Assembly: GCA_964448115.1 (NCBI GenBank)
Contig: CAYUVA010000026.1
Coordinates: 1-60,246 of the forward strand
Length of the DNA: 60,246 nucleotides
Source of the DNA: an uncultured bacterium
Lineage (GTDB): Bacteria; CAYUVA01
Reading direction: 5' to 3'
The translations under genes and the position numbers were made by a program. Every line of letters starts with the position of its first letter. Position 1 is the stretch's first letter. The notes under the pieces were generated by a model. The model was not told where the DNA came from. It did not search any database and saw nothing but the letters and a program-made list of their open reading frames with translations. Shown here piece by piece: positions 28,266 through 58,462 of this stretch.

Positions 28266-29537
28266 TCAATCTCCTACCTTGAGCCACGGCCATGGATACC
28301 CTTCGATCCCGCCTTGGCTAAAGGGGATGAGAGAGAGCAGGTACCTGTCGCTGCCGGGAAGCGGCGGGATGTCGCCTTGAATTAAAGAAAAAACCCCCTC
28401 TTCCAGGGGATCTGGCTCCAGGTACACGCCGGTAGGCAACCCCAGATAATAGATCTCCACCGACTCCACTGGATCAGCCTGGTTCTGTGCTGCTAGCGAG
28501 AGTATGTGCAGCGAGCCGGGGCTGGTAGTGGAGAGGCTGCTTGTCATGTAGCCGGCTGCCCAAATGCAGGGGGGCGCTGCCGGAGTCGGCGTTGCGGTCG
28601 CCGTAGGCAGCGGAGTCGGCGTGTGCCAGTCGTGTGCGGTCAACTCGGCGATGATGGGGAAATGATCCGATGGATAGCGCCCTTGACTCCCGTATTTGTG
28701 CATATCTACGATCCAGGTCCGCACCTGCCAGCGCGCTGCGCCGCCGATAAATATATGATCAATGCGCGATGAGATATCATAATCGGGCAGCGGTCGCTGA
28801 TAGGTGTCGATGATGCGCACCTCGGCTTGATCGAAGCTGTCGTTGAGGTCAAAGTCGATCCCCTCTATGCCGTTGGTGAGCGCCTGATACGCCTCCGAGT
28901 CTGGCTTTGAGTTGAAGTCGCCGAGCACTATGACCGGCAGGTGCGATGCAAAAGGCTCGGTGCGTTCGATGACTATGGGCGCGCTGTGCTCCTGGTTGGG
29001 GCTGTTGGGATCGAAGTGGGTGCAAGCAAAGTAAAGCTCCCTGCTATCGCTTTTTTGCCTAAGGTGCGTCCAGGCGACCAGTCGCCAGAGCTGCCAGTCA
29101 TTCCATCCCCAGCTCCATGGAACATCCGGCGTGGGGCTGAGCCAGTAGAAGCCGTATTCAATCAACTCAAAGCGCTGCGGGCGATACAGGATGACCGAAT
29201 CAGGAAGATCCTTCTTCCAGGGATTGTCCGGATCCTTGAAATATATGGCTTGGTAGCCGCTTGTAAGCTCCAGGACCTGCTGTACCTCGTAGCCGGTGAT
29301 AAGCTCCTGCAAGCCGATCAAGTCAGCATCATAGCGCTCAAATATATCAGCAAAGTAATCGATACGGTCGCTCCAAGGATCGTACTCACCAAGACCACAC
29401 ACCGAGCAGAGGACATTGAAGGTCATGGCAACAAGCTCGCTGTTGGAGTTGTCTTGCATGGAGTAAGCAATGACCGCAGTGAAGGCAATAGTAAGGATTG
29501 ATATTATGAATATCGAATGTTGCAGTCTATGCGCCAA
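28266..29537 (-). CDS. Secreted endonuclease/exonuclease/phosphatase-family protein with Pro/Thr linker and one AGY..WP[YW] C-terminal module
   Basis: MTFNV, GLQE, THFD, GDFN, RIDHI and SDHFP motifs. Probable TTG start at 29537 with AGGAG RBS and signal peptide. TPTPLPTATATPTP linker. Confidence 0.85.
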   Translation of the reverse strand: MAHRLQHSIFIISILTIAFTAVIAYSMQDNSNSELVAMTFNVLCSVCGLGEYDPWSDRIDYFADIFERYDADLIGLQELITGYEVQQVLELTSGYQAIYFKDPDNPWKKDLPDSVILYRPQRFELIEYGFYWLSPTPDVPWSWGWNDWQLWRLVAWTHLRQKSDSRELYFACTHFDPNSPNQEHSAPIVIERTEPFASHLPVIVLGDFNSKPDSEAYQALTNGIEGIDFDLNDSFDQAEVRIIDTYQRPLPDYDISSRIDHIFIGGAARWQVRTWIVDMHKYGSQGRYPSDHFPIIAELTAHDWHTPTPLPTATATPTPAAPPCIWAAGYMTSSLSTTSPGSLHILSLAAQNQADPVESVEIYYLGLPTGVYLEPDPLEEGVFSLIQGDIPPLPGSDRYLLSLIPFSQGGIEGYPWPWLKVGD

Positions 29538-29584
29538 CCTTTCATCTCCTATGTTGAATGCTACAATTAGACATAGGTGGCTAT

Positions 29585-30814
29585 TCAAGCGGGGTAATTT
29601 CTCTTAGCCCAAGCGCTTAAAATTTCTCTATTCAGCATGGCACGACCCTTGAGCTTGATCGCCTGGTCGATCATCTTTTCATGCATCGGCTCCAGGCTCG
29701 CCTCGAGTTTCATGGTCATATCATACAGCCTCTGAAGGATATCGTTATCCCTGGAGTTGATATAGTATTCCATGAGGTCTGTCTCCTTGCAGATCGCATC
29801 GGTGCGAATATCCATGGAGAGCGTAATCATGGGGATCTTCTGCATCAAACCGAATATGCAGCCGTGATAATCGCCACTAATAAGCATCTCGCAGGCGGCG
29901 ATCAGGGCAAGCTGCTCATCGAGATTATATGTCTCGCTGGGAACGAATTTAATCCGTTCCCTGTTCTTGCTCAAAGCGATTATATCCAGGCAGGGTTTGC
30001 TGTCCCATTCCTCTATTGCGAAGAGGATCACATCCTTGTCGTGCTCGGTAATAAGCCAGTCTATATATCGAGCCATCAGTTGCTTAAAGCGCTTGCTATC
30101 CTCCCTGCTGCCCAGTTTCCACGAGTAATAAAGCGGTCCCTTGAACTGGTCCTCTTTTTTCCCAATGCCCTTAAGGGTTACCGGCCACCAGTAAAAGTCC
30201 TTGGGCGCGATACCAACCAGGTTCTTCTTACCATAAAGGTTTAGCTGCCTTAATAGATCATTTTTCAATTTTGCAGTCGGTGTCTTGAGCACAAATGCAG
30301 TATCGGCGGTTACATGCACCTGGCGCTTCACCCCGATGTGCCGCAGGCGCTGGTACGCGTCATAGCTGCGCACTATGACCAGGCTGGCTGCATTGATCTC
30401 CCGCTTAGCCTGCATGGCGTTGAACCAACTGAGGTTGCCGACATCGTTTGCATAGCAGATCACCTTCTTGCCCATTGTGCGCGCCAAGAACATCCCGTAG
30501 AGGAACTTGTACAACAGAAGCGGCGAGAAGTGCTCGGTGAAGACCGCTCCCTCTGCGAGAACGAGCAGGTCATATTCCTTGATTATGAAAGGGAGTTTAT
30601 GGATTAGTTGTTCGTTCCCCAGCTTGATCAGCTTCACTTTCCCCGGGTCAAGATACCGTTTTGCGTGGTCGATGCTGGAGGTTAGAACGCCGAACTCGAT
30701 CCTTTCCTTGAATACCGAGGTAAAGTCCTCGATGCAGCTTATCATCCGTGCTTCGCCCCCGGCGCTGTTATCGCCGGTGATCCCGAACATTAAGGTTTTT
30801 ACCTTGGTAGCCAT
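29585..30814 (-). CDS. Polysaccharide pyruvyl transferase family protein (CsaB/WcaK-like)
   Basis: NSAGGEA, IVRSYDAY, VTADTAF, YHGCIFG; AAGGAG RBS before ATG at 30814. Confidence 0.78.
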   Translation of the reverse strand: MATKVKTLMFGITGDNSAGGEARMISCIEDFTSVFKERIEFGVLTSSIDHAKRYLDPGKVKLIKLGNEQLIHKLPFIIKEYDLLVLAEGAVFTEHFSPLLLYKFLYGMFLARTMGKKVICYANDVGNLSWFNAMQAKREINAASLVIVRSYDAYQRLRHIGVKRQVHVTADTAFVLKTPTAKLKNDLLRQLNLYGKKNLVGIAPKDFYWWPVTLKGIGKKEDQFKGPLYYSWKLGSREDSKRFKQLMARYIDWLITEHDKDVILFAIEEWDSKPCLDIIALSKNRERIKFVPSETYNLDEQLALIAACEMLISGDYHGCIFGLMQKIPMITLSMDIRTDAICKETDLMEYYINSRDNDILQRLYDMTMKLEASLEPMHEKMIDQAIKLKGRAMLNREILSAWAKRNYPA

Positions 30815-30854
30815 ATTGCCTTCTCCTTTTTTAAGAACATTATCTATACCTGGC

Positions 30855-31367
30855 TCAACCGCCGGATTCCATTGCCCGCAGCGTTTCCTCCAGCTTTTCT
30901 TCCCATCTTGTCCCACGGGGCAGATCGATAAACATGGCAGCCATCGATATGGCGGCAAAAGATAAGAATATCTCCCAATCCCCTGCGATCAAAAAATAGC
31001 TCAATCCGAAGATAGACAGGGACTCATATAGGGCAAAGCGTGCGATATAGCCGCTGGTCATCGCCTTGAAGTAGGCATCAAGACCGCCTTTCATCACATC
31101 GACAAGCCTCTTGGTGGAGAGAAAAAGCCTTCCCCAAGCATAAGCGATTCCGAGGTTCATAAGCGATGCCATGATGAATAGAACCTTGATCATCAGGAGC
31201 AGTCCAGGCTCCATTTTTACATATCCATCGAAATCCTTTCCCCCCTTGGATATAACCAGGGCGATGGCAATGTAAACCGCGACCGAGCCAAGTATGGCGA
31301 TGCAGATAGTGAATGTTCTCTGGAAGGCTGCCTTGCTTTTCTCTTTTTGTTCCTTTAAGCCATTCAT
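30855..31367 (-). CDS. Hypothetical 4-TM membrane protein
   Basis: 170-aa ORF with four hydrophobic helices, co-directional within the operon. Confidence 0.7.
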   Translation of the reverse strand: MNGLKEQKEKSKAAFQRTFTICIAILGSVAVYIAIALVISKGGKDFDGYVKMEPGLLLMIKVLFIMASLMNLGIAYAWGRLFLSTKRLVDVMKGGLDAYFKAMTSGYIARFALYESLSIFGLSYFLIAGDWEIFLSFAAISMAAMFIDLPRGTRWEEKLEETLRAMESGG

Positions 31368-31452
31368 GCTGCCCTTTTCCGATTCATGGTCTTATGGTAT
31401 CACTTCTTTTCTTCGCGTCTTAGTGCCTTAGTGGTTAGGAGACTCTCAAGCC

Positions 31453-31860: not shown

Positions 31861-31865
31861 GTATG

Positions 31866-33554: not shown

Positions 33555-33655
33555 ATCACCCGTATCTTAAGATTCTTGGGCGATCCTATATCAATCCTAA
33601 TCACCCGCAGAACTAATATGTATTCATTTTGCCATCCATAGTCAAGGGAGTATGG

Positions 33656-33683
33656 AAAGGGGCGATCCTTTAAGACCGCCCCT
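33656..33683 (-). terminator. Putative intrinsic terminator after the 580-aa secreted protein
   Basis: Minus strand AGGGGCGGTC-TTAAAG-GATCGCCCCT followed by a short T run. Confidence 0.55.
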
Positions 33684-33724: not shown

Positions 33725-35467
33725 CTAGTTGATGTTGAGGTAGGGCCAGAGATCGCTCTCGTCATCGTTGCCCATTGCCATAACCTCAAGGATCACCTGT
33801 AACGGAGTATTTACGGTAACTCCGGGCACCAACAAGCCGTAGATGCCATCTCCCGGACCAAAGTCTCCCGAAGCCCCGTTGTCGAGCAACTGCAAGCCGG
33901 CAGGGGTGCCTCCGAAGAAAAGCTCAACCGAGTTGATACCGGCAGGGTGAGGCATCACATAGACCATCAGGTTCAGATCCCCGGGCACTCCCACCTTGAG
34001 ATCGGTCTGCCAATATCCGCCAAGCGCGATAAATGGTCCGTTGGGTCCCTTGGATTGAGGATCGACTCCGTTTAGCACGGTCAGAAGCTGTAGCTTTGCC
34101 CAGTCGATGTTATGAGCTGAGGCAAGCATCATCTCGCTCGGCTTTCGGCTTTGTGCAGCGGCAGCCTTGACATTCAGGTAAGGCCAGAGGTCGCTTTGTG
34201 CGCCGGTAGAGTCGGTTGCCTGGATCTCAAGCGGAACATTCATTGGAGGGGCTGCACCAGCAGGGATTGGAAGGGTAATGCCGTAGATCGAGTCGCCAAC
34301 TCCGAAGTCTCCATGAGTGCCATCATCAAACATCTCCAAACCGGTCGGGCTTCCATCGACGCAGACATCCACCCTGGTTATAGGATCTCCATCCGGATCG
34401 GTGATGAAAGCCAGCAAGGTCATGTTGCCACCGCTAGCGGAGCTGATATAGGTGTCCCAGTAGCCGGCTAGAAGGATCTTGGGTGGCGCACCTTCACCTG
34501 GAGTCGTTGGAGTTGGGGTGGGTCCGGTTGGTGTTGCGGTTGGAGTAGCGGTAGGTCCCTCCTGGGTGGGGGTTGGAGTAGCGGTAGGTGCTTCCTGGGT
34601 AGGGGTGGGAGTGGCTGTCGGCGGCTGTGCGGGAACATTGTAATCGGTTACCGTAAGTGATCCGAAGGTTATCTGCCCCACTCCACCAAAGGACATGTTG
34701 GTTACCTCCTGGACTACATGGTAGAGCATAGCTGGACAGAACCAGAAGTCGAGCTGGGCGGTTGACTGGGTGCCAATGATATCCTGTGCGATGTGATAAG
34801 CGCTGCAACCTCCGCGCATCTCGATGGCATCGCAGTTCATGGTTAGGTCCCAAACCTCGCTTTCGTCAAAAGCTTCCTCTGGCTGCAACGGCTCTAAGGA
34901 ATAGATGCCATAGAGCCTGACATTGACGCCTTGCTGTGACCAATCCATGCCGACATCGAGAGGGAAGGAAACATCCTGGATCGGGGGGCAATAATCCTCG
35001 AACTGATCAGCCACCAGGTCAGCGATCTTTGCCCAATAGTCTGGAGCAAGCTCCATCTCGATCTCACCGGCAACATAGCGATGCTTTTTAACAGTAGCAT
35101 AGGTATCGACTGCCAGCCAAACATCTCCCTCCCAGGTCCCGTCCAGGACTCGGATATTGCCATTGATGGATTCATAGTGAATCTCGCCTTCAGCTCCGAA
35201 GCCGCCGTTGAAGTGAATGTGATAGCAACTGATAGTCGTTCCGCCCTCACAGGTCTGCACTACATCTTCAATACCTACATAATTGTAGCGCGCACTTGAC
35301 TGCATGCTCAGGTTGCCTGTAGCACCTTCAGCATCAATGACCACATCGTAGCTCTCAACGATGTTCCACCAGGTGCCATCAGGGAGGTTCGGTTTCTCAA
35401 CAACACCGAAACAAAGGCTGAAAGTGATCAGGGTAAGTGAGATTACCCACAGGGGGATTTTTTTCAT
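33725..35467 (-). CDS. Secreted protein: beta-rich N-domain, Pro/Thr repeat linker, two tandem AGY..WPY C-terminal modules
   Basis: Signal peptide MKKIPLWVISLTLITFSLCFG; AGGAGG RBS; PTATPTPTQE repeats; modules at 34169-34486 and 33725-34039. Confidence 0.85.
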   Translation of the reverse strand: MKKIPLWVISLTLITFSLCFGVVEKPNLPDGTWWNIVESYDVVIDAEGATGNLSMQSSARYNYVGIEDVVQTCEGGTTISCYHIHFNGGFGAEGEIHYESINGNIRVLDGTWEGDVWLAVDTYATVKKHRYVAGEIEMELAPDYWAKIADLVADQFEDYCPPIQDVSFPLDVGMDWSQQGVNVRLYGIYSLEPLQPEEAFDESEVWDLTMNCDAIEMRGGCSAYHIAQDIIGTQSTAQLDFWFCPAMLYHVVQEVTNMSFGGVGQITFGSLTVTDYNVPAQPPTATPTPTQEAPTATPTPTQEGPTATPTATPTGPTPTPTTPGEGAPPKILLAGYWDTYISSASGGNMTLLAFITDPDGDPITRVDVCVDGSPTGLEMFDDGTHGDFGVGDSIYGITLPIPAGAAPPMNVPLEIQATDSTGAQSDLWPYLNVKAAAAQSRKPSEMMLASAHNIDWAKLQLLTVLNGVDPQSKGPNGPFIALGGYWQTDLKVGVPGDLNLMVYVMPHPAGINSVELFFGGTPAGLQLLDNGASGDFGPGDGIYGLLVPGVTVNTPLQVILEVMAMGNDDESDLWPYLNIN

Positions 35468-36273: not shown

Positions 36274-37602
36274 TTGGTGATCAGCATTGGTATTCGAAGG
36301 GAAGATAAGAACCGCTGGGAGAGACGAACTCCCCTGATACCGGAGCATGTAGGGCAGTTGATCAAACAGCACCATGTAAAAGTTATTGTTCAACCCTCTC
36401 CCATTCGTATATATAGCGAGGCGGATTATGTAAAAGCTGGCGCACAGATCAGCGAGGATCTCTCAGCGTGCGATATGATCTTTGGGGTCAAGGAGATGCC
36501 GGTATCATTCTTTCAGCCTGGAAAGACCTATATTTTCTTTAGCCATACGCTCAAGGGGCAAAAGAGTAATATGCCGATGCTTAAAAGATTGCTTGAGCTT
36601 GGCTGCAACCTGATAGACTACGAGCGCATCGTCGATGAGGAGAATCGAAGGCTGGTGTTTTTCGGAAGGTTCGCCGGCATCGCCGGGATGATCGACTCGC
36701 TATGGGCACTATCACAGAGGCTACAATACGAGGGCATAACCGATTTTCTCGATGGAATAAAGCCTGCCTATGCATACCGCGATCTCAATGAAACGAAGAT
36801 GTTTTTACTATCCTTAAGGGGCAGGATTAAAAAGGAGGGCATTCCAAGGGAGTTAGCGCCTTTCATCGTCGGATTCGCTGGATACGGGAATGTATCCAAG
36901 GGCGCGCGGGAGATCTTCGACCTGTTGCCCCATGAGAACCTGGAGCCGGGCGAGATTCAAAAGGCTTATGAGCATCCGGATCGCTTCAATAATCTGTTCA
37001 AGGTAGTCTTTTACGAGAAGGATATGGTAGCGCCGATAAAGCCGAATGCCCTCTTCGACCTTCACGATTACTATGTCAATCCAGGGCGATATCGCTCATC
37101 GTTCAGCCGCTACCTGGAGCATCTATCCATGCTGATCAACTGCATCTACTGGGAGCCAAAGTATCCCCGCCTGGTTACCCTTGAAGACCTGCGCAGACTG
37201 TATGGGCAAGGAGAGAAGCCCCGTCTGAGGGTGATCGGCGATATATCTTGCGATGTGGAGGGGGCAATAGAGGCGACCCGCTGCGTAACCAGCCCCGATG
37301 ATCCCATATATGTTTACGATCCTGTTGATGATCGCATCATCTATGGAACTGCCGGCAGGGGACCGGTCATACTTGCCGTGGATAACCTGCCCTGCGAGCT
37401 ACCCGTGGACGCCTCGGTCGAGTTCAGCAATGCGCTGCTTCCATTTATGAAAGAGCTTATAGAAGCTGATTTATCCCGTAACTTTGATGAGCTGGAGCTA
37501 TCCTATCCCATTAGGAGCGCTATTATCGTACACAAAGGGAAGCTGACCCCTTATTTTAGATATCTACAAAAGTGTGTCCCAGGCAATAAAGCGGAGGCTT
37601 AA
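36274..37602 (+). CDS. Lysine-ketoglutarate reductase-like protein (AlaDh/PNT fold; LKR half of AASS)
   Basis: IGIRREDKNRWERRTPL, FGVKE, FFSHT, LIDYE, GYGNVSKGA, GDISCD, AVDNLPCELP. Confidence 0.85.
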   Translation: MVISIGIRREDKNRWERRTPLIPEHVGQLIKQHHVKVIVQPSPIRIYSEADYVKAGAQISEDLSACDMIFGVKEMPVSFFQPGKTYIFFSHTLKGQKSNMPMLKRLLELGCNLIDYERIVDEENRRLVFFGRFAGIAGMIDSLWALSQRLQYEGITDFLDGIKPAYAYRDLNETKMFLLSLRGRIKKEGIPRELAPFIVGFAGYGNVSKGAREIFDLLPHENLEPGEIQKAYEHPDRFNNLFKVVFYEKDMVAPIKPNALFDLHDYYVNPGRYRSSFSRYLEHLSMLINCIYWEPKYPRLVTLEDLRRLYGQGEKPRLRVIGDISCDVEGAIEATRCVTSPDDPIYVYDPVDDRIIYGTAGRGPVILAVDNLPCELPVDASVEFSNALLPFMKELIEADLSRNFDELELSYPIRSAIIVHKGKLTPYFRYLQKCVPGNKAEA

Positions 37603-37773
37603 AGGCTTGAGGAAAGAAAGTGTATGCTGCCAAGTGCGAGGGATTTTTAGTACCGAGATACAAAGCTGCCAGGTAAAAGAGATTCAACTTGATCCTCTTT
37701 GTGTTTTTGTGCACTATTTGTGCCTTATTGGTTGTTCAACATTATTACATCGAGATAAACCGAGGGTTTAACG

Positions 37774-39111
37774 ATGAGTGAAACGAAGAAAGTACTAGTA
37801 CTAGGGGCTGGATTAGTGGCAAGACCGCTGGTGCGCTATCTGCTCGAATTACCGGGCGTATCGGTTACGGTCGCAACCAGGACGCTGTGGAAGGCGGAGA
37901 AACTGGTCGAGGGCTATGATAATGGGATCGCACTGACTTTGGATCTGAGGGATCCTGCGCAACTGCCGCAGCTTATCGCTACCCATGACCTGGTTATAAG
38001 CATGGTGCCCTATACTTACCATGTCCAGGTGGCAAGGGAGTGCATAAAGCATCGCAAGAACATGGTGACCACCTCTTATGTCAGCGAACAGATGTGGAGC
38101 CTGGATGCGCAAGCAAAGGAGGCGGGTATAATCATCCTGAACGAGCTGGGGGTTGATCCGGGTATTGACCACATGTCAGCGATGAAGATCATCCACGATG
38201 TCGAAGATAAAGGGGGCAAGGTAGTCAGCTTCCGCTCCAACTGCGGGGGATTGCCTGCTCCAGAAGCGAATACCAATCCTTGGGGATACAAGTTCTCCTG
38301 GAGCCCGCGCGGAGTTATCCTCGCAGCCAGAAACGCTGCCAAGTTCTACGAGGATGGCGAGGTTGTTCAAATACCGGGCGAGGAGCTTTTCAAGCACTAC
38401 GAGATAGTCGATGTTCCAGGGCTTGGCAAGTTCGAGGGGTACCCCAACCGTGATGCCACAGGCTACAAGGAGCTTTATGGCTTGAAGTACGCACACACCG
38501 TGTATCGAGGTACCCTGCGCAACCTGGGCTGGTGCGATACCTTATACAAGGTCTCTAAGCTGGGGCTGCTCGACCTTGAGGAAAGACAAGGGCTTGGAGA
38601 GATGAACTGGCGGGAACTCATCAACTCATTATTGCCCGGTGAACTTCAGGGTGGAGATACTAAGGCGAACCTTGCAAAACACCTGGCTATCGAGCCTGAT
38701 TCGGATATCATGCAGCGCTTCGAGTGGCTGGGGCTGCTGAGCGATCAGAAGCTACCGGTTGGCGATGGCTCTTTGCTTGATAACTTCGCAGAGCAGATGT
38801 TGCAAAAGTGTCCCTACCAGGAGGGGGAGCGAGATATGGTAATCCTGCAGCACGAGTTCATCGCCGAGTACCCGGATCACAAGCAGAGAATTACCTCCAC
38901 AATGATAGACTTTGGCATCCCGCACGGCGATTCATCTATGTCCAGGACGGTTGGCTTGCCCCCTGCAATCGGAGCTAAGCTGATCTTAAACGGTGAGATC
39001 GAGCTAAAGGGAGTGCAGATCCCAGTGCACAAGGGGATCTATGAGCCGGCGCTCAGGGAATTAGCTGAGATGAATATATCGCTGGAGGATAGGTTCGAGA
39101 GGATAGATTAG
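37774..39111 (+). CDS. Saccharopine dehydrogenase (SDH half of AASS; LYS9-like)
   Basis: VLGAGLVA, TTSYVS, NELGVDPGIDH, CGGLPAPE, YKFSWSPRG, YPNRD, RGTLR, MSRTVGLP. Confidence 0.92.
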   Translation: MSETKKVLVLGAGLVARPLVRYLLELPGVSVTVATRTLWKAEKLVEGYDNGIALTLDLRDPAQLPQLIATHDLVISMVPYTYHVQVARECIKHRKNMVTTSYVSEQMWSLDAQAKEAGIIILNELGVDPGIDHMSAMKIIHDVEDKGGKVVSFRSNCGGLPAPEANTNPWGYKFSWSPRGVILAARNAAKFYEDGEVVQIPGEELFKHYEIVDVPGLGKFEGYPNRDATGYKELYGLKYAHTVYRGTLRNLGWCDTLYKVSKLGLLDLEERQGLGEMNWRELINSLLPGELQGGDTKANLAKHLAIEPDSDIMQRFEWLGLLSDQKLPVGDGSLLDNFAEQMLQKCPYQEGERDMVILQHEFIAEYPDHKQRITSTMIDFGIPHGDSSMSRTVGLPPAIGAKLILNGEIELKGVQIPVHKGIYEPALRELAEMNISLEDRFERID

Positions 39112-43158: not shown

Positions 43159-45183
43159 ATGCATAAGAACACCCATTCGGTTTACTTGTTAGTAATTATG
43201 GCTGGAGCCCTTATTTTATTGGCTCCGCAAGTTGGTTACCCTGTCGAGTTCGGCAGTGAGCTCCCGGTCAGCAACTGGGGCACCACCCCATGCGCTGCGG
43301 TCGATGACCTCGGTTATCTTCATGTAGTCTGGGTCGATTACACGCTTGGGCTGCATTACAAGAAGTTCAACCTGAACGGCTGGGACGGATATGAGGATCT
43401 TGACGCCGAGGAGATTCCAGAGATGGTGCCTGGTGGATCTGCGGTTGATAGCCGTTTTGCTCCACCAGCCATTGCGGTAGATAAGCAGGGCAATCCGCAC
43501 ATCGTCTGGGGCGGGTATAAGATGCCCGAGGTCGGTCCAATTTACTACATCACATACCAGGATGGAGCCTGGGGCGATCCTGAGGTCGCGGTCTGGGGCT
43601 GGTGGGACTGGGTATCATTCCCCGATATCGGGATCGATCACAACACGGGCAAGATCTGGGTTGTTGCTGAGGAGGTTACCTTCTTCCCCGCCGGCTCAAA
43701 TAACCGAATCGTCCTTAAATACAAGGACCCAGAGTCCGGCCAGTGGCTTCCCAATGAAACTTATGAATGGTCTCCTTACTATTTATCCGATCCCGAAGCA
43801 AAGGATCCAAGAAAGTGTAGTCTGGCAGTGAATAAGTTCGGGGATGTATTTGTAACCTGGCGCCAAGCGGTCGATGGCGTGCATAACGAGATACACATGA
43901 AGGAGGTTACCGCTGAGGGTGAGTTCAAGGACATAGTGATCCCGGTTCGCTATGGATTATGGGCTGCTGGTGCATACATCGAATCGGATGAAAATGGATA
44001 TCCACGATTTGCAAATGCTGTCTTCGATGATGAATTCTGGGTTGGCTTGGTTAACTATAGCCGCTGGGACGGTAATGAGTGGATAAACAATGGGTTGCCT
44101 ATACCTGGAGAGATATCGACTGATTCGGATAATGTCTTCGTAAAGATGGCGCTCAATGAGCCGTGGGTATGCATCGCATATACAAATGATCGCCATTTCT
44201 TTTACTATTTATCCAACCACGATGATGAGGAATACTTGTGGGAGGAGTTCCCCTACGAGGGGGACAGCCAGCAAAAAGGGAGACCGTTTCCGGTTGGATA
44301 CGATGATGGATTCATATTCTTCTGGGACGATACGCGGGGTTATCTTTACATGCGCGCTATGATGCTCGGCATCGGCAAGAGGAAGCCGCTGATCAGGGCT
44401 GCCGGCTATGGAGATACAAGGCTGAGCACCTGCGAGGGGGGGATGCTTGTGCTTAACGCCGCCATCGATGACCAGGTGGAACAGGACAATCTCATCGCCA
44501 GCGTGGAGATGATGTACAACCATATCCCCATGGATATTTATCTGCGCGATGATGGACTCGGCGGAGACAGGGCTGGCCAGGACGATGTGTACTCGATTCA
44601 ACTACCTATAATACCAGGGGCGCCTGCTGGGGATTATCTTATCGAGCTGATCACATTCACGGATAATGGACAGGCAAGCTCCATCTGGCCTTATCTTACC
44701 GTGTGGGGAGACGAACAACAGGGAGCAAACGAGTCAGCCCCATACACGATTCCGCCCATAACCCCCTGGTATGCGATGGAAAACGAGCTTATCAATCAGC
44801 CGCCGGCGGCTCCAGAGGAGAAAGGTTATAGCAGGTATGACTCCACCGCTCCCATAATCGATATGGCGGGGTACGAGGATACCTACATAACCAACCGGGA
44901 TGGTGGGCTAATCACCATGCGCGCTTATGTAAAAGCGGGCAACTATAACGCGCAGGATATCAGCGTCGAGGTTTACTACCAGGGGATGCCGACCGGGATA
45001 ATGCTAAATTATGTTGGAGTAGATAATACTTACACGAACGGGGATTATGTCTATGAAAACTCCACTGAGATAATACCAGGCATACCCCCAGGCGAGTACC
45101 TGCTCGAACTTGTAGCCACCAATCCGCAGGGTGAAAAGAGCATCACCTGGCCTTATGCAAGGGTATTCTATACCCTGAAATAG
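43159..45183 (+). CDS. Secreted acidic beta-propeller-like protein with two tandem AGY..WPY C-terminal modules
   Basis: Signal peptide; repeated P.IAVD..G..H[VI]VW blades; modules at 44383-44703 and 44848-45183. The AGGAGG RBS favours a start at 43156 or 43159. Confidence 0.8.
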   Translation: MHKNTHSVYLLVIMAGALILLAPQVGYPVEFGSELPVSNWGTTPCAAVDDLGYLHVVWVDYTLGLHYKKFNLNGWDGYEDLDAEEIPEMVPGGSAVDSRFAPPAIAVDKQGNPHIVWGGYKMPEVGPIYYITYQDGAWGDPEVAVWGWWDWVSFPDIGIDHNTGKIWVVAEEVTFFPAGSNNRIVLKYKDPESGQWLPNETYEWSPYYLSDPEAKDPRKCSLAVNKFGDVFVTWRQAVDGVHNEIHMKEVTAEGEFKDIVIPVRYGLWAAGAYIESDENGYPRFANAVFDDEFWVGLVNYSRWDGNEWINNGLPIPGEISTDSDNVFVKMALNEPWVCIAYTNDRHFFYYLSNHDDEEYLWEEFPYEGDSQQKGRPFPVGYDDGFIFFWDDTRGYLYMRAMMLGIGKRKPLIRAAGYGDTRLSTCEGGMLVLNAAIDDQVEQDNLIASVEMMYNHIPMDIYLRDDGLGGDRAGQDDVYSIQLPIIPGAPAGDYLIELITFTDNGQASSIWPYLTVWGDEQQGANESAPYTIPPITPWYAMENELINQPPAAPEEKGYSRYDSTAPIIDMAGYEDTYITNRDGGLITMRAYVKAGNYNAQDISVEVYYQGMPTGIMLNYVGVDNTYTNGDYVYENSTEIIPGIPPGEYLLELVATNPQGEKSITWPYARVFYTLK

Positions 45184-47402: not shown

Positions 47403-47417
47403 TAGTGTACTTTCAGA

Positions 47418-47939: not shown

Positions 47940-48169
47940 AGTTGACCTCCATGGTGGTTAACAAAAGTGTATTATCATCCTTAGTTTGTTTTCTTAGCAC
48001 TCATTTCAGAGACAATTTATATTCCCATGTTGTTTAAAAGTAACATAACAATAAGTACTTGTAAAGGACTAAAGGTTTATCCACAGAAAATTTTTATTGT
48101 GGGTTTATTATGAATATGATAAGATCATGCGTGATCGCTAATTCAAATATAACAAAAAGGAGTAATGAA

Positions 48170-50794
48170 ATGAAAGCAGGCAGAATGGCGTTGTTTTTAA
48201 TGCTATTATCGCTTGGTGTCGGTCTGATGGCACTTTTTATCCTCGGCTGCGAGGATGATGACAACGGTGGTGAAACCGCTGACTTTGTCTTCACAGCCCC
48301 GGGTCTTGAGGATCCGGTTCGCATCTATCGCGACGACCTTGGAATAGTACATATCTACGCAAAGTGTCTTAATGATCTATATTACGCCCAGGGTTACATG
48401 CAGGCTCATGATAGATTCTGGCAGATGGATCTTTATCGCAGAGTGGGGGGAGGAAGGCTAACCGAGATACTTGGTGGATTGCCACCGGTCATCGAAAACG
48501 ACATCTATTATAGAACGCTTTTCATGGGGGCTGACGGTGTTAGCGTGCTAGATACCATCTACCAAAACATGGATGAGACCACCAAGACATATCTTGAGGC
48601 TTACACCGATGGAATAAACTTTTACCTCGACAAGCTAGGGGCAGGTGAGGAATACACCTATATGCCTGAGGAGTATCACACCTTCATCGTCAATGTGGAT
48701 AACCTTGAAAAGTGGGATCCTAAGGACACGATAGCTATCGGGAGACTACAGACATGGGACTTAAGCGGTTCTATAGGTGAGGAGCTAGACTTAACCGAAT
48801 GGCTTATGTCGCTTCCGGCAGATGTGTTCAGCATGACCGTGCTAAGCAAGCCTGCGGTTCCGGTTAGCATTTTTCCAAGCGCAGGAGCGACAAGCAGCAA
48901 TGATGCGACTCCAGATTATGCAGCGATAAAAAGCCGTCTGGGAGTCTTCATAGATCAGGCGCTACTAAGGCAGACCAAAGAGAAGATAAAGCGCATAGAA
49001 TCTTATAAATTCCACAATATTGATAAACCATACAGCAACAACTGGGCTTTATCCCCCTCTATAACCGATGGATTAGGCACCCTCTGCTTCAATGACCCGC
49101 ATCTTGGGACCCAGAATCCCCCTATATTCCACTTTGCCCACCTGGTTTGCGAGGATGCTGCTGAACCGATGAATGTGATGGGTGTCTCCTTCCCCGGAAC
49201 GCCAGGCATTGTTATCGGGCACAACGAGCATATAGCCTGGGGGGACACGGTGGTAGGGTATGATGTTACTGATATCTACCAGGAGACTCGAACCACGGAT
49301 TCTGAGGGTAACGATGCAGTTTTGTTCAATGGCGAGGCGGTTCCTATTATCAAGGTGCCTGTTACCCTTAAGCTCGGTCCGGGGGAGGATGCGCCGACCC
49401 AGGAGGAGATCATAGAAGTCGTTCCTCATCACGGACCTATCCTTGCCGAGTTATCCGATGGTGATAAGGCTTACTCAATAAGGTGGACAGGACATGAGCC
49501 GACCAACGAGATCAAGGCATTCTTCGAGTTGAACAAGGCTACCACCGTGCTGGAGGCTTTCGATGCGCTGAAGCACTTCGGGACTGGTGCCCAGAACTTC
49601 GTAATCGCAGACAAGGACGGCAATATCGGCTACTATCCACATGCGCTAGTACCAATTAGGGAGAACATAGACCAGTATCCGCCGTATTTTGTCCTTCCTG
49701 GAACCGGCGGCGCCGAGTGGATCGGTTATATCCCCGATGATCGGCTGCCCCAGTTGTACAACCCAGAGACCGGCTTCATTGCGACCTCGAACAATGATAT
49801 CTATGGAACCACCTTTGATAACAATCCGCTTAACGATGAGTATTACTGGTACTTCAGCGCTGATATAGGCTTCAGGGCAGGCAAGATCGAGGAGCTGATA
49901 AACAAGTTCATTTATGCTGATACCAAGACAATGGAAGACCTGAAGGCGATCCAGACCGATATCTACGATCCCTTTGCCGAGCGACTGGCTCCCCATTTCG
50001 TCAACGCAGCGACCAATTATCCTGACCTGGTGGAGCAGTATGGCATACAGTGGGCGGTCGATTACCTCAATAATATGAGCTATTACTGCTATTCTGGCTA
50101 TGATGAGCAGTTCAACCAACTGGCAGAGGGTGAGCAGGTCGATGCCAGCATTGCCACCTCCATCTTCTTCGCTGCTGCGAATAGGCTTGGAGAGCTGATA
50201 TACGAAGATGAGTTCGAGAGCTATGGAACCTCTGAGCCTGGCTGGGATTATAAGACCAAGGCGGTACTGGCTGCTATCGAGGATACTAGCGGCGCTTACG
50301 ACCGCTTCTTTGATGACATTACCACAGCCGATGTTGAGACCAAGGACATGATACTTCTAAAGGCTCTGAATCAAGCTGTGCAGTGGCTCTCAGGGGATGA
50401 TGGCTTCGGCACCTCTGATTATACCACCTGGCGATGGGGAGATCTCCATTACTGGAAGCTGGAACATGCTTTTTCCAGCTTTGGTTATAAGGCTCTGGAT
50501 TATGGACCCTTCCCCGGACATGGTGGAGACTATACGGTCTGCGCCTCTCGATTCTCTACTAGCTATTCGAACTTCAAGATACGATCCGGCGCCAACTGCC
50601 GACTGGCATACAGGGTTACTGAGGGCAATGTCGAGGCTTTTGATGCATTCCCAGGAGGGAATGTTGCCATCAAGGACGAGCCCTACCGGTATAACCTGAT
50701 GGACGACTATGTTAACCGAAACTACTTCACACACCTCTTCTACGAGGATGATGTGATGGCGAGAAAGGTGCTTTACATAAAGCTAACTCCTTAG
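48170..50794 (+). CDS. Penicillin acylase family (S45) Ntn-hydrolase, predicted lipoprotein
   Basis: Lipobox ILGC; RDDLGIVHIYA, AQGYMQAHDRFWQMDL, SNNW nucleophile, NDPHL, WRWGDLH. Confidence 0.9.
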   Translation: MKAGRMALFLMLLSLGVGLMALFILGCEDDDNGGETADFVFTAPGLEDPVRIYRDDLGIVHIYAKCLNDLYYAQGYMQAHDRFWQMDLYRRVGGGRLTEILGGLPPVIENDIYYRTLFMGADGVSVLDTIYQNMDETTKTYLEAYTDGINFYLDKLGAGEEYTYMPEEYHTFIVNVDNLEKWDPKDTIAIGRLQTWDLSGSIGEELDLTEWLMSLPADVFSMTVLSKPAVPVSIFPSAGATSSNDATPDYAAIKSRLGVFIDQALLRQTKEKIKRIESYKFHNIDKPYSNNWALSPSITDGLGTLCFNDPHLGTQNPPIFHFAHLVCEDAAEPMNVMGVSFPGTPGIVIGHNEHIAWGDTVVGYDVTDIYQETRTTDSEGNDAVLFNGEAVPIIKVPVTLKLGPGEDAPTQEEIIEVVPHHGPILAELSDGDKAYSIRWTGHEPTNEIKAFFELNKATTVLEAFDALKHFGTGAQNFVIADKDGNIGYYPHALVPIRENIDQYPPYFVLPGTGGAEWIGYIPDDRLPQLYNPETGFIATSNNDIYGTTFDNNPLNDEYYWYFSADIGFRAGKIEELINKFIYADTKTMEDLKAIQTDIYDPFAERLAPHFVNAATNYPDLVEQYGIQWAVDYLNNMSYYCYSGYDEQFNQLAEGEQVDASIATSIFFAAANRLGELIYEDEFESYGTSEPGWDYKTKAVLAAIEDTSGAYDRFFDDITTADVETKDMILLKALNQAVQWLSGDDGFGTSDYTTWRWGDLHYWKLEHAFSSFGYKALDYGPFPGHGGDYTVCASRFSTSYSNFKIRSGANCRLAYRVTEGNVEAFDAFPGGNVAIKDEPYRYNLMDDYVNRNYFTHLFYEDDVMARKVLYIKLTP

Positions 50795-53379: not shown

Positions 53380-53489
53380 TTTAGGGACTTTAGTGTTTTG
53401 CAGCCTTTCAGTCAAGAGAGTAATAAAAAACAAACCAGGATAAAACCTAGTAGTTCACTACCAACCTGTTTTATGCTACCAATATCTCG

Positions 53490-55295
53490 ATGCCTAATAG
53501 GAACCTCTTAGCAGTTATTATTGCCCTAATAATAGTGGTCGTGATCGTCTGCTCATCAGCAGCGCCAGGACAAGACGAAAATCTCGGCATCATCTTTGTC
53601 GTGCTCGATGCCTGCCGCGCTGATAGGCTCTCGTGCTTTGGATATGATCGACCTACCTCACCAGCCATGGATAAGCTCGCTGAGAGCGGTATCATCTTAG
53701 TAAATCATTATTCACAAGCCCCGGAGACGATACTTTCTATGCCGCAGATATTCTGTTCAAGGTACTTCCCAACTCCGCTGGAGAGCTCAAGAAACTGGAG
53801 AAGGCAGTTCAAGATCGCCCTCGATGACGAGATTATTTTTACCAAACTCTTGCAGCAGTCAGGATATTACACCGCTGCGTTTACTGCACACTCATTCTAT
53901 CCGCAAGAAGGCAAGCTGGCAGCCGCCTTTGATGAGTACCACTATGTGAACCCTAAGAGAAAATCCTCCTATGCTGAGGCAGACCGAATGATAGAGGAGA
54001 GTATCAGGTGGATCAAGATAAACCGCGGCAAGAATTACTTTCTTTATATCCATCTGATGGACACCCATTTCCCCCATTTTATAAGGAAGGGCTATCGGGA
54101 TTGGATAACAGGCAAGTTAACCTACAGAGCCATAGAAAAAACGCTCGATTGGATACAACACGAGCCTGATTTTTACTCGGATGAGCTGAAAAAACTGTTT
54201 TCTGACCTCCATGACATGAGCATCAGGTACACTGACGATCAACTGGCACGCCTGTTCAACTACTTGCGTAACGAGGGCTTGATAGAGGATACACTAATTA
54301 TCATCACCGCCGATCACGGCGAGGAACTTGGCGAGTATGGGGCTTTAGGGCATGGATACTCGCTTCGGGATGAGGAGCTCCATGTACCCTTGATTATCCA
54401 TTATCCAAGAGGCTTTCCCCAAGCTCGCAGGGTAGATTTTTTAACGTAGCATGTTGATATAGCGCCTACGATACTGGATATCTGCCAGGTGGATCTGCCT
54501 GATGGATTTCGAATGGCCGGCAAGAGCATGGTTCCCTTGTTATCTGGAAAGTCCGTCAAGCCGCTGCACCGCTATACATTCGCCTGGGGAACAAAGGGAA
54601 TGATGGGGATCAGGGACCAGAAATACAAATATATTACGGCTGATGATAAGGAGTACTTGTACGACATGAATCTCAATGAGCAACCAGTTAATAATATCTC
54701 GGATAGATATCCCGAACTGCTAGCATCTTATCGAGCGGAGATCAGGAGATTCATCAAGTTGAAAGTTCGCTATGAACATGCAGGATATAAGGAGCCGGAT
54801 AAGCCATTCACCGTCATGTTCCCTCTGGAAGCTGAACCTTCCAGCAGCTATTCTACCATGCACCAGCCGCTTGGAAACAAGTGGATCTTCAAGCCGTTTC
54901 GTAAGCTTTCCTTCAAGGGCTATACCGATCATCCCCCGCGGATCGATCTTGAGCTTGATGCACCTTGTGGCACATATCGACTTTATTGCAAGGTTGATGT
55001 TATCCAATCGCCATCTCAGGATGATGAAAGGCTGCTTTTTGCAATAAAGCTACAAGGGGAGGACAAGTTCCGAGTAATTAGGGCTAAAGATTCCTTTACG
55101 AGCGGTTATGCCGAGGTCGGAGAGGTTAACATAGTAGATTCAACACTGATAGTAGCCCTTAAACCAATATCGGGCAGGAGCGATATCAGCATCACCGAGT
55201 TTCAGTTCGTGCCGCTCGATATCAAGACCAAGAAGTTGGAAAAGACTGAAAAACAACGCCTTGAGCGACTTAAAAGCCTCGGTTATATAGAGTAA
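53490..55295 (+). pseudogene. Secreted sulfatase-like (alkaline phosphatase superfamily) hydrolase/transferase interrupted by one in-frame TAG at 54447-54449
   Basis: LDACRAD, HLMDTH, TADHGE, HVPLII, then FLT*HVDIAPTILD continuing in frame to a typical LKSLGYIE end. Confidence 0.75.
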
Positions 55296-55621
55296 ATCGA
55301 GGATAGACCTCGCTGGATGGATATCTAAACGAGTCTTGAAAATCGAGTTCGGAAATTACTTAAAAAGATTTGCTATTATAATGACAATATAATTCCCTAT
55401 TTCGGGTGATTTTAATAAAGATGATAACATATCTGGCTTTACTTGGAGGTGAAACCATGAAATGGATACTAGGTGCCGACTCCTGTTTGTAGGGGATCTC
55501 CTAATACACGAAATTATTTGTGCTAGTAATATTGATATCAATGATTGATAAATGATATAAATTATATATTATTATAATACAATAATAATTTACCTAGATA
55601 TTGATAACTGCTTTTAAAAAA

Positions 55622-55637
55622 TGTTCCATGTGGAACA
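55622..55637. promoter_or_regulatory. parS: parS-like centromere site
   Basis: TGTTCCATGTGGAACA, one mismatch from the palindrome TGTTCCACGTGGAACA; intergenic, with symmetry extending into AAAA/TTTT flanks. Confidence 0.7.
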
Positions 55638-55765
55638 TTTTGCGAGATTACAGGATCGAAGGATCAGGGGTAGGTGCTTAATTGAGATATTAGGATCGCT
55701 AAACAACCATAATTTTTGATGCAATAACTGGATATTCGCTTGATACTTTTGCGACCTGGCAGAAT

Positions 55766-58462
55766 TTAATCAAGATAAACCTTTAGGTAAGGCCAGCGGA
55801 GCAGGCTCTGGGCATATACCTCAAAGGTGAACCGTCCTGCAGGGATGCCCGCCCCCATAGCTATCGGCTCCAGTGTATAAACACCATAACTACCATACTG
55901 CAAAGGTATCCCTTCCGATGCGCCAGCAAGTTTAAGGTGTACCTCAACTTCGGCCATTCGGTTCGTTATGGCTAAGAAATTCACCACTCCCCCAGCCTGG
56001 CTGGAAAGGGTCGAACCCATCCACCCCGCCATGCTCACCGCAACTGTCGGCGTCGGCGTCGGGGAGGGAAGCGGGGTCGGCGTTGCATAATCGCTGGTAT
56101 ATTCGATATCTATCCGGCGAGTAATCCCCCCAGGCACCGATAACAGCGGGAGTGTGAGCTGTGTTCGCCCCCAGAGACGCTCCAACTTGCAGTCATCTAT
56201 CGGCAAAGGCTCGCCATCGACCGCCACCCTATCAGGCTGCGCGTAACCGAGCGCTGCCTTGTAGCAGAGGTTGAAATCCTCACTACCCTTGTTGGAGATG
56301 CTAGCCCGATAAACTCCTCCGTCATCGGCGACCATGAGATCGTAGCGGGTATCAGAGATACGATTATCGGTCACGGTGAAGCTCCCCCAGCCATTGGGCA
56401 GATGGGGGAATAGATCCACCCTCATTTTCTCAATATCGGTGTGCAAGCCGGTAAGGTACTCCATCATCCCCTCCAGCACGGCTGATCCCTCCCAGGGGCG
56501 AAATCGGGCTGTGATGTCGCCATCGACCGCATCCCCTACTGGAGAGTAGGTTAGCATGGCTACCGAGTGATCGTAGTGATTCTGTCCCTCAGCGACCTCG
56601 CCGCTGTCCTGGGCGATAAGGTCTATTGCGTTGAAGGCAGCCTCTGCCTTTGGGTGATCGGTAACTGCCAGGCTGTACACCAGCTGCCCCGGCATCATTC
56701 CATCGTAAGGCTCCAGGTTTAGCGTTATAGCCCTGGGCGGCGATTGTATGGTGCCATCTGGACGCCACAGGTAATCGATGGTTCGCTGGAGGTTGGAGAG
56801 CATCCTTGGATGATGGTAAGGTAGATAGCCGATGTAAAGGGGAAGCGTATTGATATCCTCGAAGGGGAAGAGCAGCGGTTCGCTATTGGAAAAGAGCACC
56901 CCCGGCGAATAGAAGCCCTTGTCGGCCAGCCAGTACCATCGTTCACACGCCTCGAAGGCTGCCTGCTCGTACTCACGGAACAATGCAAGGTCATCGGGCT
57001 TGTCCAGCAGCATCGCAAAGTGCTCCATTGCCCGGCAGGCTACCACATACAGGAACGATGAATAGGCTGACCAGATGAAGTTCTCCGGCTCGTAGTACAA
57101 GGTCGCTATAAAGAAGACCCAGCGCCATGCCTCATCCTTGGAGAGCTTGAACAGCCAGTCCTCGTTATGTTCCTGGTCCACCAGCCACTGGCGAAGGAAC
57201 TCGTACCTGCGCTCGATGAAGGGGAGATCCCCAGTGGTTCGATAGTAATCGTAGTACTTTAGGATGACATAGTTGGGTGCCTCGGTCTTGTTGCGACTGG
57301 GAGGCTCCATTATCTCTATCTGACTCCAGTCAGGCTCTGGAGGTAGATTATCTATATCGACATCGAGTCCGATCGAATTGCTCATCGAGCTGTGCTTCCA
57401 GCAAGCCTTGAAGTGATAGTCAAGCGAATTGCGGATGTCCTCGTAAAGCCCCAGTCGAGCGTAGAGCCTCACCGTTGCGTGATCATCCCTGATGTTATAG
57501 ATCGTATAGCGCGACATGGGACCGATTCCGCCTCGATAGGCGGTCTGTAGCTTATTTATTATAAGTGTTACATCGAGCAGTTGGTTTACCTTTGGATCTG
57601 GTGAATGGAGCCTGGCTAGCTGTGAGCGCCAAGACCTGAAATAATCCCGCACCTGTTCGAGAAGCTCCAACTTGTCCGCTGCAAGCAACCCCGCCTCCAC
57701 GACCTTATGATCGATTCCAGAATCAGCGGTAACGATGTACTGGTAGAATAGCCGCTCCTGCCCCGGCATAAGGTCTCCTATCCAGATCGATAGCTGGTTT
57801 CCGGATGCCTGATAGACACCCTCAGCGGAGAGATATGCATATTCATCCGAGTTGCCGCGTCGCTCCACGATATACCTTCCCTCTTTGCTCCAGGCTTCCC
57901 CGGCGTTGTAGGAGAAAAGCTCAAGGTTTGCGGCTATGTCGCTCGATTCGTTGCTTACGATGGTGATGCGGACCATAGCTGTCATGCCCAGCGGAGCGTA
58001 ATCGACCGTGTAGAGCGCGATGTTCTCCGCGGTCAAACCTTTTGTGATTACGATGCCGGTGTCCTTTACCCACCAAGCCCACTCTTGGCGAAATACGCTT
58101 TCCTTTCCATTGACCTTGACTTTGCTGGCAATGTCGCTGAAGAAGGGGCCTTTACCCTCGTAGTCGGGACCGCAAAGCTCGTGCAGCGAGTTTAGTGGAT
58201 ATCCGATCCCGACCATTGCGAAGGTGTATCCATTTCCTATGCCGAAGGAGGCTCTCTCTGCGGTGCGGAAGATGACCGGGTCTGGATTTTGCACATACTC
58301 TGCCCAGGCGCTGCGCTCCAGTAGCCAGGGATGCTGCTCGAAGAACTGAGCCATCGGCGTTTGCGGTGTATCAACCTCCCATAGATGAAGCGCCTCGATC
58401 AAACCGACATTAAGGAATAGACACACTGATAGTGCCAGCAATAACCATGCTTTTGTCTGCAT
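55766..58462 (-). CDS. Secreted six-hairpin (alpha/alpha)6 glycosidase-like protein with Pro/Thr linker and one AGW..WPY C-terminal module
   Basis: Signal peptide; YNIRDD, YYDYYRTTGD..F, SGEVAE, RPWEG and PHLPNGW resemble GH15/63/65/78-type barrels; ATPTPLPSPTPTPT linker. Confidence 0.65.
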   Translation of the reverse strand: MQTKAWLLLALSVCLFLNVGLIEALHLWEVDTPQTPMAQFFEQHPWLLERSAWAEYVQNPDPVIFRTAERASFGIGNGYTFAMVGIGYPLNSLHELCGPDYEGKGPFFSDIASKVKVNGKESVFRQEWAWWVKDTGIVITKGLTAENIALYTVDYAPLGMTAMVRITIVSNESSDIAANLELFSYNAGEAWSKEGRYIVERRGNSDEYAYLSAEGVYQASGNQLSIWIGDLMPGQERLFYQYIVTADSGIDHKVVEAGLLAADKLELLEQVRDYFRSWRSQLARLHSPDPKVNQLLDVTLIINKLQTAYRGGIGPMSRYTIYNIRDDHATVRLYARLGLYEDIRNSLDYHFKACWKHSSMSNSIGLDVDIDNLPPEPDWSQIEIMEPPSRNKTEAPNYVILKYYDYYRTTGDLPFIERRYEFLRQWLVDQEHNEDWLFKLSKDEAWRWVFFIATLYYEPENFIWSAYSSFLYVVACRAMEHFAMLLDKPDDLALFREYEQAAFEACERWYWLADKGFYSPGVLFSNSEPLLFPFEDINTLPLYIGYLPYHHPRMLSNLQRTIDYLWRPDGTIQSPPRAITLNLEPYDGMMPGQLVYSLAVTDHPKAEAAFNAIDLIAQDSGEVAEGQNHYDHSVAMLTYSPVGDAVDGDITARFRPWEGSAVLEGMMEYLTGLHTDIEKMRVDLFPHLPNGWGSFTVTDNRISDTRYDLMVADDGGVYRASISNKGSEDFNLCYKAALGYAQPDRVAVDGEPLPIDDCKLERLWGRTQLTLPLLSVPGGITRRIDIEYTSDYATPTPLPSPTPTPTVAVSMAGWMGSTLSSQAGGVVNFLAITNRMAEVEVHLKLAGASEGIPLQYGSYGVYTLEPIAMGAGIPAGRFTFEVYAQSLLRWPYLKVYLD

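Follow-up and report, generated by a model that had tools for sequence, protein, structure and literature searches.

A C-terminal immunoglobulin-like module on exported proteins of uncultured bacteria is predicted to pair by strand swapping

A 60,246-nucleotide stretch of DNA from an uncultured bacterium of GTDB lineage CAYUVA01 (assembly GCA_964448115.1, contig CAYUVA010000026.1, positions 1 to 60,246; hereafter the window) encodes four secreted proteins that end in one or two copies of the same domain of about 105 residues, here called the module. The module was noticed earlier from the letters of the window alone (the sequence-only reading). We find that it recurs on a large part of the exported proteins of this genome, that two copies are predicted to complete one another by exchanging their last strands, and that the whole is best read as a dimeric tag by which Sec-exported surface proteins of a diderm cell dock or are retained, a reading that depends on structural models and to which we assign a probability of roughly 0.45.

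Results

All six copies that the sequence-only reading had placed in the window (Table 1) translate in frame and align, with G8, G20, V39, W101 and P102 invariant. A profile built from 263 modules of genomes other than the window's own recovered every one of them (iE 5e-40, 2e-30, 1e-28, 6e-25, 2e-19 and 1.1e-8), the best of the reversed open reading frames (ORFs) that served as decoys reaching E 0.1. By pairwise BLAST, copies 1 to 5 were mutually significant, mostly at E 1e-6 to 1e-21 (0.006 for copies 1 and 3), and copy 6 matched weakly (E about 0.1). The carriers had been described as exported proteins with unrelated passengers, and this was borne out: each has an N-terminal hydrophobic stretch and no later transmembrane (TM) segment (signal-peptide and TM calls throughout come from a hydropathy heuristic, not SignalP), three have passengers matching different Pfam families, one of them weakly, and the 580-residue protein has no Pfam family. 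The Pro/Thr-rich (PT) linkers reported for three of the four carriers are likewise present. In what follows, A denotes the first and B the second, terminal module of a tandem, and a lone copy is called single.

Table 1. Modules, carriers and linkers in the window, and the free subunit encoded elsewhere in the same genome (G000)
Feature	Position	Strand	Remarks
Secreted EEP-family nuclease/phosphatase, single-module carrier	28266..29537	-	PF03372, E 5e-13; start TTG at 29537, inferred from ribosome-binding site; ORF open from 29588
PT-rich linker of EEP carrier	28575..28625	-	
Module copy 1	28269..28574	-	Single, terminal, acidic loop deleted; chain 1 of complex model
580-residue secreted tandem carrier	33725..35467	-	Passenger without Pfam match; paralogue at G000:C45:6221-7984
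PT-rich linker of 580-residue protein	34487..34627	-	
Module copy 2	34169..34486	-	Position A of tandem
Acidic DDG..GD..GD loop in copy 2	34262..34339	-	Matches NCBIfam choice_anch_X (residues 377-402)
Inter-module linker of 580-residue protein	34040..34168	-	Trp-bearing helix, then Lys-Gly motif
Module copy 3	33728..34039	-	Position B, terminal; last strand completes copy 2 in model
Secreted propeller-like tandem carrier, 674 residues	43159..45183	+	BNR_4 weak, below cut-off; start 43159 inferred; ORF open from 43108
Module copy 4	44383..44703	+	Position A of tandem
Inter-module linker of propeller-like carrier	44704..44847	+	Trp-bearing segment
Module copy 5	44848..45180	+	Position B, terminal
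Secreted six-hairpin glycosidase-like single-module carrier	55766..58462	-	Bac_rhamnosid6H PF17389, E 1e-5
PT-rich linker of glycosidase-like carrier	56045..56092	-	
Module copy 6	55769..56044	-	Single, terminal, divergent, loop deleted; iE 1.1e-8, external profile
Free subunit, 186 residues	G000:C4:99847-100407		Signal peptide; segment of about 55 residues (amphipathic helices, conserved Trp); one module; mature form at 99910-100404

A profile iterated from the six window seeds over all 30,492 stop-to-stop ORFs of the window's own genome (G000; 3.98 Mb, 94% complete) identified 205 module domains in 167 ORFs; one copy is present in 131 of these, two in 35 and four, the highest number in any ORF, in a single one. 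The last module lies at most 10 residues from the stop codon in 147 of these ORFs; the external profile returned 202 domains in 164 ORFs, 144 of them terminal, and the module is present in 159 of the 2,867 called genes. The claim that it is always C-terminal thus stands within the window, but genome-wide 20 of the 167 ORFs depart from it, several copies lying straight after the signal peptide and several being followed by PKD, Big_5-like or other tails. Removal of seven short or weak matches left 160 carriers, a lower bound, as a further carrier (C58:20514-22500) is broken by a contig end after the first residues of its module. The expectation of many more copies genome-wide, nearly all terminal and on signal-peptide proteins, was therefore correct.

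A signal-like hydrophobic N-terminus was found in 145 of the 151 carriers with an intact 5' end, as compared to 483 of 1,079 other long ORFs. Only two of the 160 carriers have a later TM-like segment, and a lipobox-like site occurs in none of the 151 (57 of 2,642 other genes), so that no lipid-anchored carrier was found among them. Because the module and such anchors appear mutually exclusive, it may be used in their place. PT-rich linkers precede the module in 82 of 123 singles and 9 of 34 tandems, and carrier length has a median of 881 and a maximum of 3,293 residues. The module is borne by 140 of the 325 soluble signal-bearing ORFs of at least 400 residues (about 43%). Pfam was searched with 37 of the 160 carrier ORFs and 14 further proteins, mostly from other genomes; the passengers, of kinds common among surface cargo, include peptidases (S8, C25, C14, C11, S15), GH31, purple acid phosphatases, beta-helices, FG-GAP, PQQ, Kelch and BNR propellers, FGE-sulfatase, LTD, PKD and Big_5, and 12 of the 37 had no Pfam family. 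The C25 peptidase encoded in G000 itself carries the module. Judged from their sequences, the carriers are exported, non-anchored proteins with a terminal, lineage-restricted domain in single, tandem and free forms. The cell itself is diderm, with four Omp85 and six secretin matches.

Comparison of 61 module sequences with NCBIfam returned choice_anch_X (33 members at E<=0.1, over an acidic loop only) and Ca_tandemer below cut-off, and with Pfam only Big_7, Big_13 and DUF4625, all below cut-off; there was no curated-model match to SLH domains or known carbohydrate-binding modules (CBMs). The choice-of-anchor X model (NF041940, 37 positions) shares the acidic DDG..GD..GDG loop with the module but spans about 25 of its 105 residues, a quarter, and is matched by neither the whole module nor all copies, 28 of the 61 members being without a match. 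The 580-residue protein scores 37.7 bits and the free subunit described below 25.5 (cut-off 25), and the other three window carriers fall below the cut-off. Part of what the sequence-only reading took for a new module is therefore covered by a catalogued model, while no full family model was found. The loop is optional (by regular expression, in 36 of 114 terminal singles, 16 of 35 A and 25 of 35 B modules) and lies outside the predicted dimer interface; in copy 2 it may bind Ca2+. A search of PDB sequences gave a best E of 0.71, and ESM Atlas matched unnamed clusters only (0.89; 0.92 for the free form). Our literature search, whose coverage excluded subscription journals and supplements, found no description of the domain, and the main text of PMC8248873, in the portion available, makes no mention of one. 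On this sequence evidence, the module is a large and real family that is modelled by neither Pfam nor NCBIfam.

The module also occurs as a free secreted subunit with a signal of the signal-peptidase-I type (Table 1). In all 11 positive genomes of the phylum of genome G022, the best module match is this short ORF, and 22 of 23 aligned short homologues share the layout of signal peptide, Trp helix and module, with the acidic loop kept. One homologue of the free form comes from a source whose name begins 'candidate division CSSED1'. Present in one copy, the free form is much better conserved than the modules attached to cargo and is syntenic in 7-8 loci, mostly between khpA and a convergent ATP-grasp gene; its conserved neighbors are housekeeping genes (fabF, a TPR protein, khpA, the ATP-grasp gene, mfd, identified by eye, and a PPIase). 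High expression of the free gene was considered and dropped: its codon index lies at the 21st percentile (rpsA, 88), and the index mostly tracks AT content.

Tandem linkers resemble the free form. They range from 19 to 74 residues (median 35, n = 166), and none is short. A Trp lies 12-28 residues before 97 of 166 B modules as compared to 30 of 157 first or single modules, and [KR][GAS] precedes B in 23 of 33 tandems, A in 4 of 32 and singles in 4 of 124, the last figure being biased by the PT linkers. The linker of the 580-residue tandem is homologous to the pro-segment of the free subunit. Since the Trp segment and module of the free form align to tandem linker and module B over 128 columns, a tandem can be described as a passenger, a module A and a fused unit of the free type.

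AlphaFold2 modelled the tandem of the 580-residue protein with a pLDDT of 90.6 and a pTM of 0.86 across a low-confidence linker, with linker helix 129-138 docked (pLDDT about 97), and the free monomer with a pTM of 0.67, its helix undocked and no C-terminal strand. The models give the Ig-like fold that the sequence-only reading had expected, a generic FN3/Ig sandwich (best Z 7.6, root-mean-square deviation 3.5 A, 93 aligned residues, tied with many FN3/Ig domains), and the likeness to CBM-adjacent FN3 domains is likewise only generic. Although only 84-95 positions are aligned, solved single FN3/Ig domains extend over residues 1 to 252-253 of the tandem model, whereas on the free monomer the alignments end near residue 161, 5-6 residues before the end of the target; in the model, therefore, the tail of B completes the fold of A. 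No solved tandem with the same packing was among the structures listed.

The same exchange was predicted between chains. ESMFold2 gave window copy 1 with the free subunit a score of 0.81 (best of three controls, 0.00), with runs agreeing in at least 71% of contacts and a partner pLDDT of at least 62; solved complexes clear the mark applied in 116 of 157 cases and mismatched pairs in 2 of 215, rates only roughly valid here because our own alignments were used. The best contacts are reciprocal (chain 1:chain 2, 1:97-100/2:139-143, 1:78-80/2:161-162 and 1:6-10/2:60-62) and the interface is symmetric: the two AGY strands meet where a small residue precedes the invariant Gly, and the YLxV tail of either chain packs against the GxYLL strand of its partner. 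When model contacts were read against module sequences and conserved columns, the contact motifs AGY, GxYLL and WPYLxV were among the most conserved (G 99%, Y 89%, W 80%, P 98%, L 90%), so the AGY and WPY motifs by which the module is recognized fall in the predicted interface, with the near-invariant Pro at the hinge. At least four residues follow this Pro in 137 of 143 terminal modules, and five or six in 115 of 143. Swapping of the last strand would explain this tight tail length, and pairing within a chain the lack of tandem linkers below 19 residues; because a swap would need a free or flexibly linked tail and not a free carboxylate, the module would usually, not always, come last. Taken together, the models of the two predictors indicate that the module probably pairs as a reciprocal strand-swapped dimer.

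Across 1.84 billion cluster representatives, 844 match the module at E<=0.001. As the sequence-only reading had predicted, the module is taxonomically restricted, being confined among the genomes searched to 20 from four phyla near Acidobacteriota. The phylum of G000 has no other sampled genome. Of 40 genomes searched from other phyla, only three gave any match, 20 of them in G022 and a single weak partial one in each of two others; within G022's phylum the module occurs in 11 of 14 genomes (4-51 matches each), within that of G047 in 7 of 7, and within Acidobacteriota (G046's phylum) in 1 of 201 sampled genomes, while relatives of G003 gave none in 31 in a search that lacked a positive control. 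In a tree of RpoB (30 sequences), G000 is sister to G022's phylum (support 0.956), the two lie near Acidobacteriota (0.965), and G047's phylum comes next on a long branch (0.817). This tree of a single gene suggests, though it does not prove, that the module is old and was then lost in some lineages. An FG-GAP tandem carrier of about 1,680 residues is common to G000 and G022's phylum at 30-33% identity. In G047's phylum, two or three tandem paralogous secreted proteins of about 460 residues are encoded upstream of a 1,870-residue carrier (L181:960-6182, L185:1542-5250).

Discussion

We propose that the module is an FN3/Ig-like beta-sandwich that would be incomplete alone. Two copies would pair with their first (AGY) strands on the two-fold axis, and the last strand of each (YLxV, after the Trp-Pro hinge) would enter the other copy beside its GxYLL strand. 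The functional unit would be the pair, which, usually mounted on a Pro/Thr linker, would give Sec-exported hydrolases and adhesins a handle for docking or retention. In tandem carriers it would form inside one chain; single carriers may pair in trans, with each other or with the free subunit, which keeps the acidic loop that most singles have lost. In the weakest step, the pair, with Trp helix and loop, may bind some surface component. A handle of this kind is suggested because the module excludes lipid and TM anchors and serves chemically unrelated cargo, and the pair itself is probably what is recognized because, if the module served only to cross-link cargo, tandems that pair with themselves would make no sense. 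The sequence-only reading had offered export, anchoring or docking; docking is now the best supported of the three, by the predicted swapped pair and the free subunit, while export and anchoring are still conjectural. Whether surface docking or retention is the purpose of the pair we regard as an even bet.

Several observations weigh against this proposal. Near relatives of a true partner also pass the complex tool (10 of 12 colicin pairs), which therefore can neither distinguish homo- from heterodimers nor show the free subunit to be the real partner, and the Trp helix is not among the confident interface residues of the trans model. The A-like or B-like sequence signal is weak (75 of 113 singles A-like, 9 of 12 free forms B-like). 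The free form was found in none of the seven incomplete genomes of G047's phylum, though true singles occur there, and G052 and G054 keep it although only tandem carriers were found in them; it would thus be neither needed for singles nor merely a cap. Finally, no receptor or cognate machinery emerged from T9SS (type IX secretion system) markers, gene neighborhood, type II secretion system (T2SS) genes or the FadL family. Carriers are scattered (11 adjacent pairs, 9.3 expected) and the families of their neighbors are the large families of the genome, so neighborhood was abandoned as a lead. G000 has an expansion of 12 FadL-type barrels (ten FadL/OmpP1, two TraF_2-like; e.g., L158-L169), all below PorV cut-offs, and a carrier is found no more than two genes away from 6 of 14 FadL-profile matches, an association with a post hoc p of 0.03 that loses significance when the distance is set to one gene or to three. 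As receptors, these FadL/PorV-like barrels were rejected: they were not found in six of seven genomes of G047's phylum, and 5-7 matches occur in module-negative G058-G060. A T2SS link was rejected as well, T2SSN being found in none of five genomes and T2SSK matches being non-specific and occurring in module-negative G058 too. No repeated-receptor family stood out among 333 signal-bearing non-carriers, a survey in which the cohesin family was not searched for.

The module works most like the T9SS C-terminal domain (CTD), but is not a member of that family by sequence or by PorV. In both, a flexible linker leads to a terminal Ig-like domain, and the proteins so tagged are varied hydrolases and adhesins exported by Sec. 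The module is longer (about 105 as compared to about 70 residues), none of the 61 members matches TIGR04183/Por_Secre_tail, and it also occurs in tandems that would pair with themselves, sometimes N-terminally, and as a free secreted subunit. According to the portion of PMC4804311 available, the RgpB CTD (T9SS, type A) is a seven-strand Ig-like domain that dimerizes by swapping its last strand, as we predict for the module, but also folds unswapped, whereas the swap of the module looks obligatory in the models. The same portion gives a proposal that this swap aids recognition, and it is conceivable, though we are doubtful, that the module is likewise an outer-membrane export signal, whose labile last strand or pair is read by a translocon or shuttle (T2SS or other), the dimer being a by-product or a way to an export-competent folded unit. 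The diderm cell with its Omp85 proteins and secretins, a GspK-like gene in G000, cargo like that of T9SS down to the C25 peptidase, and the large share of soluble exported ORFs with a module all fit such a signal. However, PorV (PF19572) was found in none of five genomes, while its control matched, and TIGR04183 had no match in G000 and one in G047; module-negative G058 also has secretins and GspK-like genes; some modules are N-terminal or internal; and a cargo-free module kept across two phyla would be odd for a pure export signal. A search of the five genomes for SprA (PF14349) gave no match, and neither did its control.

The free subunit raises another idea, that of a self-assembling surface layer or filament in which it would be the brick, cleaved at a basic site after the Trp helix, and carriers would co-assemble as decorations, the polymer growing by open-ended strand donation or by packing of dimers. 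Its conservation, synteny and single copy, its persistence in genomes with only two detected carriers, and the [KR][GAS] site before B modules alongside a module-bearing C25 peptidase would all suit a brick. We nonetheless consider this improbable, as the models predict a closed interface with two-fold symmetry, none of the seven genomes of G047's phylum yielded the free form, and the codon index of its gene is low, though confounded as noted above. A version that keeps the predicted dimer, namely a hitherto undescribed surface-display system of several uncultured phyla in which a strand-swapped Ig dimer is the brick and a protease-matured free subunit and about 160 carriers pair combinatorially and co-assemble, also seems to us unlikely. 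It is similarly improbable that the module is an ordinary accessory Ig-like domain (dimerizing, stabilizing, or binding glycan, Ca2+ or mineral) spread by shuffling without a sorting role, for although its fold is generic, its sub-cut-off Big_7, Big_13 and Ca_tandemer matches point that way and its conserved aromatics could form a CBM-like platform, the aromatic motifs lie in the predicted dimer interface, the carriers have no chemistry in common (proteases, phosphatases, glycosidases, adhesins), lipid or TM anchors hardly ever accompany the module, and a self-pairing tandem would cancel cross-linking.

Other known systems share parts of this behavior. In cellulosomes, helical EF-hand dockerins dock enzymes onto cohesins; like a dockerin, the module is a small terminal unit behind a PT linker that would tether many enzymes, with a possible Ca2+ loop, but it is all-beta in the models, is predicted to pair like with like and has no dockerin match in 61 members, and no multi-receptor scaffoldin was seen, one ORF having at most four module copies. 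In type V pili and chaperone-usher systems, an incomplete beta-sandwich is completed by a terminal strand of another chain, and the module resembles them in strand completion and in a possible basic cleavage site before the domain. Its exchange is predicted in the two-chain model to be reciprocal and closed rather than polymeric, and, unlike type V pilins, it has no lipoprotein precursor (0 of 151 lipobox-like) and about 160 different passengers. Donor-strand complementation of the chaperone-usher type is also mentioned in the available portion of PMC4804311. Predicted strand-swap pairing, tandems that would pair with themselves and a free subunit set the module apart from other terminal Ig-like tags. 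IPTL-CTERM, PEP-CTERM and LPXTG are terminal sorting tails and, like the module, shared elements at the ends of unrelated exported proteins; the module differs from them in having neither TM helix nor basic tail. Three non-carriers of G000 (C6:6209-11707, C42:2-985, C52:124-1581) do end in a motif that we take to be IPTL-CTERM-like, followed by a TM helix and a basic tail, so a membrane-anchoring sorting route would coexist with the module.

Some further features of this genome were noted. Its 57 lipoprotein genes, among them a penicillin amidase in the window (48110-50794), lack the module, and many have an acidic run after the Cys, presumably akin to the lipoprotein export signal of Bacteroidota. 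Five carriers (C53:14181-17885, C25:34138-37008, C29:36661-38775, C16:63840-66227, C1:76593-78365) run on beyond the module into an FN3/Big_5-like repeat (PxxPxNPxP..GA..V.PN) and break off right behind its first strand; an uninterrupted copy of the repeat lies inside C17:9853-11679. Read-through was rejected, as the stop codons are of three kinds and the repeat goes on in no frame; the stub is possibly a second donor-strand tag or a repeated truncation. Two GT-C glycosyltransferases in the window, TMEM260-like (16326-18341) and YfhO-like (5791-8316), with a similar gene that has 29 homologues in G000, are candidates for O-glycosylating the PT linkers. The Omp85 genes (C2:65259, C9:52426, C25:48255, C43:10720) comprise three POTRA-Omp85 and one PD40-Omp85; one POTRA-Omp85 lies beside TamB and Mla genes and another beside TolB. 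G000 also encodes about 43 paralogous radical SAM proteins of the B12-binding type (type by eye). Within the window, a sulfatase is apparently split into ORFs 53490-54449 and 54489-55295 (frameshift, assembly error or real split); adjacent genes at 36274-39111 resemble, by eye, the two halves of aminoadipic semialdehyde synthase (lysine-ketoglutarate reductase and saccharopine dehydrogenase); a Memo-AMMECR1 fusion with an N-terminal hydrophobic stretch (58481-59989) lies directly upstream of the glycosidase-like carrier; and 10 N bases are present, with an X run in ORF 3264-4703, a Gld-type ABC substrate-binding-like gene (type by eye).

The module marks much of the secretome in several uncultured phyla and can thus serve as an annotation marker. 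If the predicted swap is true, an obligate strand-swap pairing module would join the short list of ways in which bacteria tether enzymes, and it would bear on the proposal made for the T9SS signal that what a terminal Ig-like tag offers its partners is a labile last strand. Were the surface-display version also true, these bacteria would have an enzyme coat on the scale of a cellulosome without scaffoldin, sortase or T9SS, and the module would offer a genetically encodable tag for coupling like with like.

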